From assembly GCA_048886685.1 (NCBI GenBank), contig JBHLKM010000001.1, positions 256,001 through 320,000 on the forward strand: a stretch of DNA of 64,000 nucleotides. Reading direction: 5' to 3'. A program made the translations under genes and the position numbers. How positions within the stretch are numbered: the first letter of the stretch is position 1; every line of letters starts with the position of its first letter. Source of the stretch: Candidatus Hodarchaeota archaeon (GTDB lineage Archaea > Asgardarchaeota > Lokiarchaeia > Sigyniarchaeales > SOKP01). Below are positions 32,562 to 37,869 of this stretch, in pieces. The notes beneath the pieces were generated by a model, which made no database searches, had not been told where the DNA came from, and saw only the letters and a program-made list of their open reading frames with translations.

Positions 32562-32948
32562 TTACATTTGGGAGATAATCTGTCTCATAATTTGCTCTCC
32601 CGCGGCCCCAACCATCAATCCGTTCCGTACAAGCAACTGACCTTGAATCTCTATTGGGTGATTTAAGAGTTCACCGTTTTTGAAAAACAATAAGGTTGGA
32701 ATGGCTGTTATACCAAACATCTCACCGAGAGGCCTATTCCTGTCCAAATCCTCTTTTAATAATTTGATAAGACCTTCACTTTTCAGTTTTTCTAATATTG
32801 GACTTAAAAATTTGCAAGGGCCGCACCATTGCTGTTTGAGTGAGGAATTCACTCAAATTTCAGTGTAGACATCTACGATGACTTTGCCCTCTTTCATATC
32901 GTCTGTAATTTCAAGTCCAAATTTTTTTAATTCTTCGATATTTATCAT
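32562..32948 (-). CDS. trxA: Thioredoxin, 118 aa after removal of a 30-nt insert (exons 32948-32859 and 32828-32562)
   Basis: Exon 1 MINIEELKKFGLEITDDMKEGKVIVDVYTE joins in frame to exon 2 WCGPCKFLSP...FGITAIPTLLFFKNG. The unspliced frame has TGA at 32855-32853. Confidence 0.88.
32829..32858 (-). other. Candidate BHB/BHL-type intron in thioredoxin mRNA (30 nt)
   Basis: ATTTGAGTGAATTCCTCACTCAAACAGCAA. Perfect 9-bp stem TTTGAGTGA/TCACTCAAA, 3-nt bulge AAA, central helix ACTG/CAGC (3 pairs plus one A-C mismatch), contains an in-frame TGA. Confidence 0.78.
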
Positions 32949-33057
32949 ATTAGATACAATTTTGTAGTTTAAGGTATTTTTATTGTATTGTGATATAGTT
33001 GGGGGAATAAATATTTAATTGCTTTTATTAATTTCATTTACAAATTAAAAATCAGAT

Positions 33058-33335
33058 CGAGTGGAAACTGACGAAAACCATATGGAAAAGGAAAGATTAC
33101 ATGGAATACAAAACCACCATATGGTCAAAAATGGGGGTCATTTGAAGTTCAAGCCAATGGAGGTCATGCAGTCAGTGTTGGATCATATATCATCCCTGGT
33201 GTAAATTTCTAAATCTGTATTAAAGCATCAATGAATCAGAGTGATTTTATAGCTATATCCTCAAAATATGAAGCTCCAAATATTACCATAATAAGAGGAA
33301 ATAATGAAATCAGATGTAATTACATATGTTATTAA
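33058..33335 (+). pseudogene. Degraded fragment of a DNRLRE/CBM96-like domain gene
   Basis: RVETD..(frameshift)..GKITWNTKPPYG...VNF*ICIKAS...FIAISSKYEAP. In-frame TAA at 33210-33212; no intact start. Confidence 0.45.
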
Positions 33336-33573
33336 ACAGATGGAAAAAAATACAAATTCTGACACAATTAAGAGATGTAATTTGAATATATTTTTCTTAA
33401 TTTTATTCATGGAATATGAATTATTTACAAATTAAAAATGGAATGGCACACAAATTAATAAATAACTATATTAATGATTAGGGAATAGTATTAAACTTGA
33501 AGAAAAGAATAAAATCCTTATGTTGAGATTGAGAAAGATAAGGATATTAATTTAGAAAATTAAAGCAAATTTT

Positions 33574-34047
33574 ATGAAGATTATTACATATGGTTGGAGT
33601 TTAAAGTGGAAGGCTCCGATAATAGTGAAAAAGGAAATTGATCTGAAATGCGAGGGTGAGGGATGTGAAGATAATCCTTTTGTCATTAAGCCATCAAGCA
33701 TGCTACCGAGCTATTTTGAAATACATAATTCTGAGTATTACGTAGATATTCAAAATTGTGATCTTGAATCAATTGACTTGAAACATTGCAGGAATGTTAC
33801 TTTTAAAGACTGTAAATTAAAAAGGAGTAAATTAGAGGGGTGTTCGATTATCAGATATTTAAATTCAAATATATATGGTAATTTAACTTTACTTTCCTGT
33901 AATGAAGTAAAAATCGAGGAATGTATAATTAATAAGTTGAAATTTAAGAGCTCAAATTCAAATCTAGTTAAAAATTGCTCAATTAACACTATCAAGAAAA
34001 TTAGAAGTAAAAATAATATTTTTGAAGAAATTATTAATTCCAAATAG
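33574..34047 (+). CDS. Small right-handed beta-helix (NosD/pectin-lyase-like) protein, paralog 1
   Basis: GEGCEDNPFVI motif followed by repeated I.NC / L..C.N strands. Confidence 0.7.
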   Translation: MKIITYGWSLKWKAPIIVKKEIDLKCEGEGCEDNPFVIKPSSMLPSYFEIHNSEYYVDIQNCDLESIDLKHCRNVTFKDCKLKRSKLEGCSIIRYLNSNIYGNLTLLSCNEVKIEECIINKLKFKSSNSNLVKNCSINTIKKIRSKNNIFEEIINSK

Positions 34048-34084
34048 TGATTTAACCCAAAAAAATTGAAAACTTGATAATTCT

Positions 34085-34543
34085 ATGAAGCTAATTGTAT
34101 ATGAAGCAAATTTGAAATGGAGATTTCCGACAGTAGATTCAAAATATATTGATTTTGACTGTCCTGGTACAGGGATCGAAAGTGATCCATATATTATTGA
34201 ACCTTCAAAAGCTCTTCCAGGCAATTTTGGGCCCTTTAATTCCAAAGAATTCATTAGAATTCAAAATTGTCGACTCGCTCAACTAAATATAGAATCTTGT
34301 CAGAATATAGAATTTGAGAATAACAAGATTAAAGGGATCCAATTAAATAAATGCTCTGACTGTTCCTTAGTAAATACTGAAGTAGAATTATTAAGTTTAG
34401 AGAGTTGTCAGAACATTAAGATTGCAGATTGCATAGTCGATAGATTAAGACTTTATCATTCTGGGTCAAATAGTTTTAAGAATTGCATTATTAAGTATAG
34501 AAAGACGATAAAAAGCAAGGAAAATATTTTTGAAAATATTTAA
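34085..34543 (+). CDS. Small right-handed beta-helix protein, paralog 2
   Basis: GTGIESDPYII motif and SCQNI repeats. Aligns end to end with 33574..34047 (LKW..P, SK.NIFE). Confidence 0.7.
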   Translation: MKLIVYEANLKWRFPTVDSKYIDFDCPGTGIESDPYIIEPSKALPGNFGPFNSKEFIRIQNCRLAQLNIESCQNIEFENNKIKGIQLNKCSDCSLVNTEVELLSLESCQNIKIADCIVDRLRLYHSGSNSFKNCIIKYRKTIKSKENIFENI

Positions 34544-34618
34544 ATTCCTGCACAAAAGTCTAAAACGAGAGGAGATAACTTTTTTGTTAAGGGGGACTTA
34601 ATCTTTTCTTATTTATTG

Positions 34619-35254
34619 TTATATAGGAGTTATCCTTAAAATCAGCGACTCATTCCTGGCGAATAATTCGACATCACATTGTTTTTGGTTATGTAATAAT
34701 TCACTGAAGTAATTTCCCCAGAAGTCACTGTATCTTTTGCTATGAAAGTCATGATAAAACGACATTTGATAAGTGCCCTTGCTTCCTACTTCAATATCTA
34801 TTTTATAGAAATAATTAGCGCTTAGCCATACATTTTTAATAGCGTCCAGAAGCTCCCCTATAGACATCTCGACAATATTTTCGTTTTTATACCATTCTAT
34901 AACATCGATTGCTATATTTTCAGTAAGGGCTTTCTTGTGGTCTCCAGAAATATAAGAGAGATATGTTTTTTTTCCAACTAATACCATGTTTAGTTCATTT
35001 CTTGCTCTATTCCAAATATTCTGTAAATCACTTTTTTCAGGAAAATAGTATTGATCAAGTAATTCTAATGCTCTCTCAATTACTTTAGATTTATTTCCAA
35101 AAATTTTGTTTTGATCTTTATCCTTTAAATCAGCATATTTTTCAAGTAGTCCATTTGCTTTTTCAGAAATAGTAGTATGAATGGTTAATTTCTTCTGCTT
35201 TTCAGTTTTATTATTGTTCAATTCTTTTTTCTCCGTTTTGTATATAATTATCAA
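34619..35254 (-). CDS. Putative transcription regulator (ribbon-helix-helix-like N-terminus plus an effector domain)
   Basis: TIHTTISEKANGLLEKY...NKSKVIERALELL fits the strand-helix-helix pattern. Divergent from the radical SAM cassette. Start uncertain. Confidence 0.5.
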   Translation of the reverse strand: MIIIYKTEKKELNNNKTEKQKKLTIHTTISEKANGLLEKYADLKDKDQNKIFGNKSKVIERALELLDQYYFPEKSDLQNIWNRARNELNMVLVGKKTYLSYISGDHKKALTENIAIDVIEWYKNENIVEMSIGELLDAIKNVWLSANYFYKIDIEVGSKGTYQMSFYHDFHSKRYSDFWGNYFSELLHNQKQCDVELFARNESLILRITPI

Positions 35255-35272
35255 ATATTATATTTAATTCTA

Positions 35273-35387
35273 TGTTCATATATTTTTCGATTTTTATATA
35301 TTAATGTTGTGATTCTTGTTCATTTTCTGTGTGATCATGTTTATAGATGACCTTTCTGAATGACCACAAAGCTTAGATATGTGACCA
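35273..35387. promoter_or_regulatory. Array of TGWYCA-like hexamers in the divergent promoter region
   Basis: TGTTCA 35273, TGTTCA 35317, TGATCA 35332, TGACCT 35348, TGACCA 35361 and TGACCA 35382. Two of them lie in TGTGAYCATG. Confidence 0.4.
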
Positions 35388-35436
35388 TGATATTATTCAA
35401 GTGATGAAATAAAAAAAAGAAGAGGTGTAAATAAAA

Positions 35437-36330
35437 ATGAGAAAAAGAAGAGCCTTTCTAGGTCTTATTGCGTTATTTCTACCATTTATTTTAATTCTCA
35501 ACACAAACATATACAATGTAGAAAGGAGTTCACAGAATTTACTTGTAATATCTGATGATCTAATATATCATGTCCAGAACTATGTAGTTGCTTTAGATAT
35601 TGATGAACTTGATATTCAAGCACAAATCAATATAACATATAATGTTCTTAGTGGGATTAAACAAGATGGTTTTAAAAGATTTATAATTCCAAAACATTCA
35701 AATGGGGAAATTTTAACAATTAAAGTCTATGATGATGAAGGTCTTAATTTGGCTTGGAATTATAGGGAATTTGAAGGAAGAGATGGTAACCACTATAAAG
35801 AAATTTCTTTTCAGCATCCAGGATTTACCGGGATAAAAACAGTTTCAATCAATTTTAAAATGAAAAATTGGATTGTAGAACGCCAATCTGGTACTCAAAT
35901 TCAACTAGGAAATATAGGAACTTTCTCAATAAGCGTAAAACGAGCAGAATATATTATTATCTTTCCTGTTAATTATGAATTAGAGGAAATAAAATCTTCA
36001 GCGTCAGGAATAGAATTATTTGATGAACTTAATAACCGTTTGAGGTACTACTTCATACAATATGAGCCAATTTCAAATGATCTTAGTTTTACATGTTCAC
36101 CTCATATTACAAACAACCCTCCTTTAGAAGAAGTTAATTTAATAGACTCTCGAATCATATTAGTTACAGTTGCATTAGTAATAGTCTTTTCTTTTATGTT
36201 TTTTATAATTTATGCTGTAATAAAATCAGATCGAGAGTGGAGTGGAGGTGTTGGTTGTGGTGGATGTGGAGGGGGAGGTGGTTGCGGCGGATGTGGAGGG
36301 GGAGGTGGTTGCGGCGGATGTGGAGGTTAA
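35437..36330 (+). CDS. Single-pass membrane protein (DUF2207-like beta ectodomain) with a Gly/Cys-rich C-terminal tail
   Basis: GAGGTG SD, signal peptide, beta-rich ectodomain, TM helix, then WSG-GVGCGGCGG-GGGCGGCGG-GGGCGGCGG-stop. Confidence 0.8.
   Translation: MRKRRAFLGLIALFLPFILILNTNIYNVERSSQNLLVISDDLIYHVQNYVVALDIDELDIQAQINITYNVLSGIKQDGFKRFIIPKHSNGEILTIKVYDDEGLNLAWNYREFEGRDGNHYKEISFQHPGFTGIKTVSINFKMKNWIVERQSGTQIQLGNIGTFSISVKRAEYIIIFPVNYELEEIKSSASGIELFDELNNRLRYYFIQYEPISNDLSFTCSPHITNNPPLEEVNLIDSRIILVTVALVIVFSFMFFIIYAVIKSDREWSGGVGCGGCGGGGGCGGCGGGGGCGGCGG
36247..36327 (+). repeat. Three 27-nt tandem units encoding GxGCGGCGG
   Basis: Units 2 and 3 (ggaggtggttgcggcggatgtggagg[g/t]) are nearly identical; unit 1 is diverged. 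Confidence 0.9.
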
Positions 36331-36361
36331 GAACAAAATTTGAATATTAAATGATTAAAAG

Positions 36362-37414
36362 ATGAAAGAAATGAGGAGAAAGGTAAAAAACTCGAATTTA
36401 AGAATGTGGAATTTTTTTTTGCAACTCCATATTACAGAGAAATGTAATTTAAAATGTATCCATTGCTATGAGGGGAAGTCACCAAGAAAGGACACTAATT
36501 TATTAACATCTAAAGAGATTTTTGATTTATTAGATGAGTATAATGATTTTCTACGTGTTCTCAAAGCAAAAGGAACTGTATATTTTACTGGTGGAGAACC
36601 GATTCTTGATAGCAATCTTTCTAGCTATATCTCTAAAGCTTCAAAATTAGGTATGCATACTATGGTTTTATCTAATGGAACATTGATAAATAATTCAAAA
36701 GCTAAAGAGTTATACAAAGTTGGAACCAACTTTGTTCAAATTAGTATTGATGGCCTGGAAAAAACACATGACTACATCCGAGGACTTGGTTCGTTTCAAA
36801 AAGCAACTGAAGGATTAGAAAATTGCTTTAAAGTTGGATTAAATACTACAGTGATGACTACTCTGAGCAAATTAAATGCTGATGAAATAGAGGGAATAAT
36901 ACTTCATTGTATTGAACACAATGTTTCTCGAATAGCGTTTGGGAGATTAGTTCCTGTTGGAAATGGAGTCGAATTACTCAGTCAAATTTTCACTAAGTCA
37001 GAAACATTGAAACTATTTAAAACAATTAAGGATTTGAAGAGAAAATACGAAAATCATATAGATTTTGCTTTTCACGATCCTCTTTGGACAAGTTATTTGA
37101 ATATAAAAAGTACCAGTGGTTGTAGCGTAGGTAAGAGAGGTTTATGTATTGTAGAAAATGGAGATATTATGCCATGTCGTAGGATGGATTTAGTTATAGG
37201 AAATATTAGAAATGATGCCCTGCTTGATATTTGGAACTCAAATTATCTTAGACAATTTCTTAATAGAAATAAATATGGTGGGAAATGTAGAAAATGTGAA
37301 AGATTGACTCGTTGTGGAGGGTGCCGGGCTATTGCTAAAGCTATTAATGGTAATGAATTCGGAGAAGATCCTCAATGTTTTCTAAGAACTAAGGAAATTA
37401 GAATGAATAATTAA
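36362..37414 (+). CDS. Radical SAM protein with a C-terminal SPASM domain (peptide/protein maturase type)
   Basis: CNLKCIHCY, TGGEP, QISIDG...HD.IRG; SPASM GCSVG...GDIMPC and CRKC.....CGGCRA.......EDPQC. Confidence 0.93.
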   Translation: MKEMRRKVKNSNLRMWNFFLQLHITEKCNLKCIHCYEGKSPRKDTNLLTSKEIFDLLDEYNDFLRVLKAKGTVYFTGGEPILDSNLSSYISKASKLGMHTMVLSNGTLINNSKAKELYKVGTNFVQISIDGLEKTHDYIRGLGSFQKATEGLENCFKVGLNTTVMTTLSKLNADEIEGIILHCIEHNVSRIAFGRLVPVGNGVELLSQIFTKSETLKLFKTIKDLKRKYENHIDFAFHDPLWTSYLNIKSTSGCSVGKRGLCIVENGDIMPCRRMDLVIGNIRNDALLDIWNSNYLRQFLNRNKYGGKCRKCERLTRCGGCRAIAKAINGNEFGEDPQCFLRTKEIRMNN

Positions 37415-37451
37415 AAGAATTACTGAAATAAAATAAGGTGAATTTATTAAT

Positions 37452-37631
37452 ATGTCTTTCATAAACAAGAAAAGAATAGTTGTAAACTTAATAATATGGG
37501 CTAGTTGTACTTCCATTCTTGGATTTTTCGGAATTTTTTTTGGTTTTGACATAATTTTACTATGCATTATCTTAATGTTATGCGGAATGTCTGTACCATT
37601 TATTATTGCCATATCTTTAAGAAATTTTTAA
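37452..37631 (+). CDS. Small 2-TM membrane protein (59 aa), below the ORF-track cutoff
   Basis: AGGTG upstream; MSFINKKRIVVNLIIWASCTSILGFFGIFFGFDIILLCIILMLCGMSVPFIIAISLRNF*. Starts 37 nt after the radical SAM gene. Confidence 0.6.
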   Translation: MSFINKKRIVVNLIIWASCTSILGFFGIFFGFDIILLCIILMLCGMSVPFIIAISLRNF

Positions 37632-37869
37632 TGAGGAGCTATTAGTAATCTCTCACTTTGATGGTTATGAAATTCTTTAGAGTTAATTAATTTGTGTAAT
37701 CAATGTATATTATCACAGAATTTATTGATCAGTCCTTTTACTTAAGATCAGGGAGAAGTAAGAAAAAATGGATGTTAATTTCTAATTTAAAAATTACGAA
37801 TTAAAAGAATTAATTTTAAAATCGAAAATAGGTTATACTAAATAATATTAAGATAAACTGATCGTTCAA

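Follow-up and report, generated by a model that had tools for sequence, protein, structure and literature searches.

The C-terminal tails of TIGR04222 proteins have been proposed as substrates of MNIO enzymes close to the maturases of bufferins, in a study that also reports many TIGR04222 genes without an MNIO and names no radical S-adenosylmethionine (SAM) partner for them (Antoine et al., PMC12452194). BufB-type MNIOs convert cysteine to 5-thiooxazole, a copper-binding ring (PMC11626156, PMC12668002), and the radical SAM/SPASM enzyme SbtM likewise turns cysteine into 5-thiooxazole by abstracting its β-hydrogen within a GG(C/U)G motif (PMC9204691). Here we analyse a two-gene cassette in a 64,000-nucleotide (nt) stretch of a Candidatus Hodarchaeota archaeon of the Lokiarchaeia (assembly GCA_048886685.1, contig JBHLKM010000001.1, positions 256,001 to 320,000; hereafter the window), in which a membrane protein with a glycine/cysteine tail, the carrier, is followed by a radical SAM/SPASM enzyme. 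The enzyme very probably modifies the tail. By a fuller reading, to which we assign a probability of roughly one in three, it would set several 5-thiooxazoles on a full-length membrane protein, in its cytoplasmic tail, with neither a leader nor an RRE (the element for recognising ribosomally made, post-translationally modified peptides, RiPPs), as an anaerobic stand-in for bufferin-type MNIOs; it would have been recruited, in Asgard archaea and several bacterial phyla, by the placing of cysteines in the Gly/Ser tails that DUF2207, TPM and TIGR04222 proteins ordinarily have. The elements concerned are the following (lengths in amino acids, aa; ORF, open reading frame).

35437..36330, + strand: carrier (ORF A), single-pass membrane protein of 297 aa; beta ectodomain resembling DUF2207-N, Gly/Cys tail at the C-terminus
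36244..36327, + strand: putative substrate tail, carrier residues 270-297, with three CGGC pairs and the end Cys-Gly-Gly
36362..37414, + strand: radical SAM/SPASM enzyme (ORF B), 350 aa, starting 31 nt after the carrier and lacking an N-terminal RRE

The carrier opens with a hydrophobic stretch from residue 7, continues as an all-beta ectodomain (residues 40-226) and has a second transmembrane (TM) helix from residue 240. Its final 28 residues comprise 21 Gly, 1 Val and 6 Cys (274, 277, 283, 286, 292 and 295), arranged in three 9-residue units with one CGGC each, and contain GGCG five times; the sequence of 35437-36330 thus bears out the first-pass annotation, made by a model from the letters of this DNA, which had described a signal/ectodomain/TM protein ending in a 28-residue Gly/Cys tail with three CGGC motifs. 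Six-frame translation of the genome yields 23,668 ORFs, of which no other ends in this way, and all ten carrier homologs keep the Gly/Cys tail, the last six residues (C292-G297) being invariant in the family alignment. Judged by this uniqueness and conservation, the tail is no chance feature. The topology, together with basic residues that follow the TM helix in homologs, predicts that it lies in the cytoplasm. The names under which the closest homologs are filed support an Asgard origin.

As for the rest of the carrier, a Pfam search of the protein returned no match, but its homolog P0006 does carry PF09972, and the ectodomain model matches DUF2207 clusters at TM-scores of 0.53-0.58. The same model aligns with Ost1 (ribophorin I luminal domain; VIA Z 15.6, rmsd 2.6, 169 aligned) and with an M1-aminopeptidase N-domain (Z 12.6); the ribophorin I match was rejected as a guide to function, M1 aminopeptidase domains scoring close behind. 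The TIGR04222 domain is matched neither by the carrier nor by its homologs P0002 and P0006 (one long paralog scores 37.8 against a cut-off of 43), and the carrier is a short single-pass form without the multi-TM C-terminal domain PF20990, which the long paralogs match weakly. Selenocysteine read-through of the tails was also considered and rejected, for they stop at TAA, TAG and TGA alike and nothing tail-like lies beyond TGA. In four database entries (P0018, P0029, P0030 and P0031) the starts are mis-called, and the Ala/Val-rich N-termini that result are a Gly/Cys tail read in another frame.

A survey of 398 Asgard genomes for both genes gave 10 with the enzyme and 10 with the carrier, 9 of them shared. 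The two genomes outside this overlap reflect assembly breaks: in G199 the contig stops within the enzyme gene, and in G130 both genes are present across a gap. A Cys-Gly tail lies directly upstream of 14 of the 15 close enzymes with upstream DNA, a count in which, as in the survey, the genomes are kin and not independent, the patchy joint pattern covering several families. The three closest carrier homologs on long contigs are each followed by the enzyme, and at one locus (L177:138-6023) three tandem paralogous carriers of 579, 629 and 289 aa, with 7-10 tail cysteines each, precede a single enzyme. Carrier and enzyme are, then, a conserved two-gene unit. The gene-neighbourhood co-occurrence that the first-pass annotation had put forward as a check is borne out by this overlap, and the upstream tails support its proposal that the enzyme's partner is a membrane-tethered tail rather than a free peptide.

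A search of the 398 genomes with a tail-first DNA pattern was noisy, with many control matches; among the 50 loci read from it, radical SAM genes stood only at long Gly/Cys tails, and one locus, in G108, was new. This locus (L208) presents a second Asgard version of the pair, a TIGR04222 carrier with a Gly/Cys tail beside an enzyme of the bacterial tail-linked clade. Elsewhere, a gene for a two-cluster ferredoxin, a possible electron donor for the enzyme, sits between regulator and carrier in G130 (L184:754-1020), and a second, divergent radical SAM/SPASM gene lies upstream of a tailed carrier at L178:2300-3289. An apparent carrier-enzyme fusion (P0236) was discarded as evidence, since its junction reads as a one-base slip in a G-run and the next frame holds the tail and stop as usual; P0231, which resembles it, was discarded too.

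The identity of the enzyme is clear at the level of superfamily, as the first-pass annotation had held in describing a radical SAM enzyme with a full SPASM domain 31 nt downstream. It matches Radical_SAM (PF04055) with 80.6 bits (cut-off 29.5; E 2e-22) and SPASM (PF13186) with 47.6 bits (E 2e-12), and presents the SAM motif CxxxCxxC at C28/C32/C35, eight conserved SPASM cysteines (254, 262, 272, 309, 312, 318, 321 and 339) and the invariant arginines R195, R273 and R274. With the SAM motif beginning at residue 28, there is no room for an RRE, and PqqD (PF05402) is unmatched in G000, G170 and G153. Below the superfamily, the enzyme falls under every NCBIfam cut-off: 191.5 of 400 bits for the ACGX-repeat family (TIGR04340), 157 of 650 for AhbC, 157 of 500 for AhbD and 148 of 350 for SbtM. 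True ACGX members score above 538, and they and true SbtM members form clades of their own.

These scores bear on the possibility, named by the first-pass annotation as the case that would overturn its proposal, that a heme or other cofactor enzyme (AhbC, AhbD, NirJ) merely stands by chance beside a membrane protein. The enzyme does obtain 147-164 bits on the NirJ and Ahb models, yet these values are far under cut-offs of 500-650, and the same models give higher scores to two other genes of the genome. It also lies outside the AhbC/D-like clade, in which none of 105 rows has a tailed neighbour, as against 23 of 25 enzymes in the related clade; its active-site residues mostly differ from those of that clade, and its patchy distribution tracks that of the carrier. 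The closest homologs are not heme enzymes, and we regard this explanation as effectively refuted.

The tail is not confined to one kind of protein. Enzymes at 28-33% identity likewise follow Gly/Ser/Cys tails, borne by DUF2207, TPM and TIGR04222 proteins, and the tail is thus portable between unrelated carriers, that of the window's family included. The relation between tail cysteines and the neighbouring enzyme was examined in DUF2207 and TPM genes from families of two seed genomes (a Lachnospiraceae bacterium and Ruminococcus), fetched irrespective of tail. A radical SAM gene comes next in four of four cases with at least 2 Cys in the tail, versus none of 82 Cys-free tails (2/2 versus 0/82 without the two seed genomes). 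The tail-linked enzymes fall into three lineages whose fork the tree leaves unresolved, a single origin being neither supported nor rejected (p-AU 0.24).

A further line of evidence comes from carriers with a different enzyme beside them. Within the window's own carrier family, the gene for P0145 (ectodomain family match, E 5e-40) overlaps an MNIO gene (PF05114, 101 bits; best NCBIfam match BufB), the gene that follows P0142 starts with the same N-terminal sequence as this MNIO, and P0153 has a radical SAM/SPASM gene next to it. No MNIO was found in the genome of the window. Given that the carrier always stands before the enzyme and that related tails carry cysteines only beside a radical SAM enzyme or an MNIO, an iron enzyme that uses oxygen, the enzyme very probably acts on the tail cysteines, as far as gene order and sequence can tell.

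This has to be set against the prospect that the tail is covalently unchanged and works as a CxxC metal or Fe-S ligand or as a docking site, the enzyme loading it, being tethered by it or acting on some other membrane substrate. CxxC pairs are classic metal ligands, and the number of cysteines varies from 2 to 10 among the tails compared, both points in favour of this view. In many tails, however, the spacing is C-x3-C or C-x4-C rather than CxxC, and two unrelated classes of cysteine-modifying enzyme swap beside the same tail. Sister clades with the same active-site residues, in the loci read, also stand mostly beside Cys-containing peptides. We therefore hold an unmodified tail to be distinctly unlikely.

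What the enzyme would do to the cysteines is a harder question, on which the MNIO swap and the tail sequence offer two independent hints at one product: BufB-type MNIOs make 5-thiooxazole, and GGCG, the target of SbtM, is the motif that recurs five times in the tail. The active site was compared at six positions preset from PMC10288494 and at others picked from conservation. At the six preset positions the enzyme equals SbtM at four, with one more similar, and the ACGX enzyme at five. In the wider set, Q21, H23, Y36, T76, Q126, S128, T167, R195 and R273 are common to the tail-linked clades, SbtM and the ACGX enzymes, and mostly different in the Ahb-like group. This signature favours SbtM-like chemistry and is no proof of it. 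By analogy with SbtM and the MNIOs, oxidation of the cysteines to 5-thiooxazoles is our tentative assignment, with somewhat less than even odds. The first-pass annotation had thought of thioether crosslinks or epimerisation; cysteine oxidation of the SbtM/MNIO kind now appears likelier, with thioethers keeping a place among the candidates.

A sactisynthase or ranthisynthase would join each cysteine sulfur to the alpha-carbon of a Gly or Ser close by; the thioether rings formed would be small and unnested, like those of streptosactin or StsA. Sactionines between Cys and Gly are known from StsB (PMC10288494), streptosactin contains four-residue rings (PMC9389541), and the archaeal SPASM enzyme CrpC installs thioethers in a whole protein (PMC13692751). 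StsB and CrpC, however, rely on an RRE, which the enzyme lacks in a genome without a PqqD match; no conserved leader precedes the tail, which stands some 9 residues from the TM helix; the loop after the auxiliary cysteine reads Arg-Arg in the enzyme versus His-Gln in CteB and Gln-Leu in SkfB; and the same tails also pair with bufferin-type MNIOs. Thioethers are, on balance, unlikely, though they remain a serious contender.

Other chemistry at the tail may also be envisaged, such as an anSME-like conversion of Cys to formylglycine or an enethiol, or a change to the carboxylate of the C-terminal Gly-Gly, which the three conserved arginines would hold. The SPASM domain of anSME has eight cysteines, and the Cys-Gly-Gly end is invariant in the carrier family. 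Several products can, moreover, arise from Cys thioaldehydes (PMC13638132). On the other hand, the tail has no sulfatase CxPxR motif, and the tails beside the related bacterial clade end otherwise, keeping ancestral Gly-Ser-Trp or Ser-Ser-Phe ends. Reactions of this sort seem to us improbable.

Several observations weigh against 5-thiooxazoles on the carrier tail. The enzyme lies outside the SbtM clade, and its 147.8 bits on the SbtM model (TIGR04082) come from model positions 190-516 only. The sactisynthase SkfB, which is its best match among solved structures, equals it at four of the six preset positions, as many as SbtM; both facts speak for thioethers, although SkfB differs from the enzyme at the two arginines. 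The eighth SPASM cysteine, C262, present in the enzyme's clade and absent from the sister tail-linked clades, could occupy the auxiliary-cluster site proposed for the substrate thiol in SbtM. An open site on auxiliary cluster I, with seven SPASM cysteines, is also a mark of sacti- and ranthisynthases. The exchange with MNIOs rests on two short contigs, and no product of a TIGR04222-type MNIO has been characterised (PMC12452194). Thiooxazole metallophores known so far are periplasmic, whereas the tail here is predicted to be cytoplasmic. Genetic linkage, for its part, means shared function and not catalysis on the tail, a point in favour of the unmodified tail. The sole exception among the 15 close enzymes, at 52% identity, is preceded by a free peptide of 55 aa; in this locus (L176:3022-6092, Ca. 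Tiddalikarchaeum) the enzyme follows an ABC transporter gene and the peptide, which bears its Gly/Cys motif at the N-terminus. A complex prediction of the enzyme with carrier residues 258-297, at a score of 0.15 (mark, 0.32), is counted neither for nor against any reading.

With these reservations, thiooxazole formation would proceed as follows. Gene order and the operator sites described below suggest that carrier and enzyme are co-expressed under a divergent ribbon-helix-helix (RHH) regulator. Once inserted, the carrier would expose its ectodomain on the outside and keep its tail in the cytoplasm, within reach of the soluble enzyme with no need of a leader or RRE. Cleavage of SAM and hydrogen abstraction are established for the radical SAM superfamily, and the enzyme, which has the motifs, would take a hydrogen from a tail residue. 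Were this the β-hydrogen of cysteine, as with SbtM at GGCG, the resulting thioaldehyde could close on the carbonyl of the preceding Gly to give 5-thiooxazole, with a loss of 4 Da per Cys; a second oxidation step and a leaderless recognition of the repeat would be required. The enzyme would in this way correspond, without a need for oxygen, to the bufferin-type MNIO that neighbours members of the same carrier family. The weakest step concerns the role of the product, which might be a membrane-anchored, multi-site ligand of soft metals, probably copper, or a rigidified interaction tail, in either case serving under membrane or metal stress. In Streptococcus mutans, a DUF2207 mutant shows sensitivity to stress (PMC10457818), and a TPM protein of Bacillus acts together with SPFH and zinc-finger proteins under membrane stress (PMC13713150).

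The surroundings of the pair contain the following features.

34619..35254, - strand: divergent ribbon-helix-helix/AF_0136-type regulator, beside the carrier at five Lokiarchaeia-type loci, window included
35272..35388, no strand: candidate operator RTG-NN-CAY, four copies (35272, 35331, 35360 and 35381) in the regulator-carrier spacer
33050..37760 (approximate), no strand: insertion of ~4.7 kb between thioredoxin and hdrC, holding the cassette and two beta-helix-like genes
37452..37631, + strand: 59-aa hydrophobic candidate ORF (ORF C), inside the insertion, with a GGTGA ribosome-site-like motif

Of 159 genomes, 44 have the regulator, and most of these lack the cassette. The putative operator motif, chosen by eye from three loci, appears 4 times in the spacer versus 0.2 expected, and its last two copies, 21 nt apart (35360-35388), are the only intergenic pair of the genome at such spacing. 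In 9 of 10 further loci, including a cassette in G153 without an adjacent regulator, the motif exceeds shuffled counts. A scan for sigma-70 promoters and terminators stayed at chance level, the sigma-70 model being ill-suited to archaea. Opposite the closest relatives of the regulator (L379, L380, L382 and L383; G000 C5:227225-231070) stand genes for GPP34, zinc-ribbon membrane and SPFH proteins, and the operator motif recurs there, a hint that the family may act in membrane stress; other copies of the regulator face unrelated genes.

Among 24 genomes of the same genus, 21 have thioredoxin and hdrC 279-342 nt apart. Within the insertion, two tandem paralogous beta-helix/pentapeptide-like genes (33574-34543; 157 and 152 aa) give weak Pfam matches. 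Outside it, the thioredoxin ORF (32562-32852) has an odd start, just before its active-site motif. ORF C is indeed where the first-pass annotation had placed a 59-aa two-TM member of the cassette, but its membership did not hold: neither the genome nor any of the loci fetched holds a homolog of it, and it is absent after an enzyme 79% identical, so by sequence comparison it is no conserved part of the system, and its status as a gene, on which codon usage gives no clear sign either way, is uncertain.

Related enzymes elsewhere have small peptides as neighbours. A sister radical SAM/SPASM clade of Nitrospirota, Deferribacterota, Dehalococcoidia and Thermodesulfobacteriota has a conserved Lys-rich peptide of 29-36 aa within 420 nt upstream; a Cys stands two or three residues before its C-terminus (e.g. 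PGKICHK), and a YceI-like gene often adjoins it. Peptide and clade together look like a separate, undescribed RiPP family, on the evidence of these sequences.

Lys-rich-peptide loci: L015, L017, L019, L020, L095, L096, L098-L102 and L106 (plus L018, L021-L023 and L103)

Beside another related enzyme (L122:2337-2737) lie a PqqD-like gene and one for a 40-aa peptide with three Cys at its end, and in a Woesearchaeote (L031) a CxxC-repeat peptide lies upstream of a related radical SAM gene.

In the literature searched, from which most subscription journals fall outside, no description was found of this enzyme group with Gly/Cys-tailed membrane proteins. The group is an unnamed one among SPASM enzymes, labelled heme synthases in databases, and the present analysis supplies it with a testable substrate. 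It also offers an approach to the Gly-rich tails, so far unexplained, that DUF2207, TPM and TIGR04222 proteins bear, and suggests a partner for some TIGR04222 genes that stand without an MNIO. If the product were thiooxazole, the system would represent the copper-binding RiPPs in a membrane-anchored form and would add a new pair of aerobic and anaerobic enzymes; a leaderless enzyme acting on a short, portable C-terminal tag would, besides, serve as a tool for protein modification. Already known are the action of radical SAM enzymes on whole proteins, as with CrpC (PMC13692751), and the proposal of tails as MNIO substrates.

Set beside the described systems, the pair shares with SbtM/SbtA (TIGR04082; PMC9204691) a radical SAM/SPASM enzyme with three clusters, the GG(C/U)G target and active-site residues. 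It departs from it in that SbtA, a small peptide that often contains selenocysteine, is free, while the target here would be the tail of a 297-aa membrane protein, and in that SbtM has an N-terminal extension and a clade of its own. The ACGX-repeat system provides the best NCBIfam match and a repeated small-Cys-Gly target motif, but its enzymes form a separate clade whose cut-off of 400 is not reached, and its target is a free peptide of 60-100 aa, present at true ACGX loci and found nowhere in the window. To our knowledge, the ACGX reaction is uncharacterised. StsB, GggB, SkfB and the CrpC of Methanococcus voltae (PMC10288494, PMC9389541, PMC13692751) resemble our enzyme in having a Cys-rich substrate next door, with Cys-Gly links known, and CrpC also in its whole-protein archaeal target; CrpC differs in its seven SPASM cysteines, and StsB and CrpC in their RRE and soluble substrates. 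With DUF2207 (YciQ-like)/TPM proteins the carrier shares, by model comparison, the DUF2207-N ectodomain fold and also a Gly/Ser-rich tail; their ordinary members have neither tail Cys nor an adjacent radical SAM gene (0/82). With the TIGR04222/MNIO (DUF692) systems (PMC12452194) and the bufferins and captophorins (PMC11626156, PMC12668002), the locus shares a low-complexity Gly/Ser/Cys C-terminal tail on a membrane protein as proposed substrate. The two overlap in both directions, TIGR04222 carriers adjoining related radical SAM enzymes in our data and the window's carrier family adjoining an MNIO; they differ in that the window's enzyme is a radical SAM protein and that the tail is predicted to be cytoplasmic here and periplasmic there.

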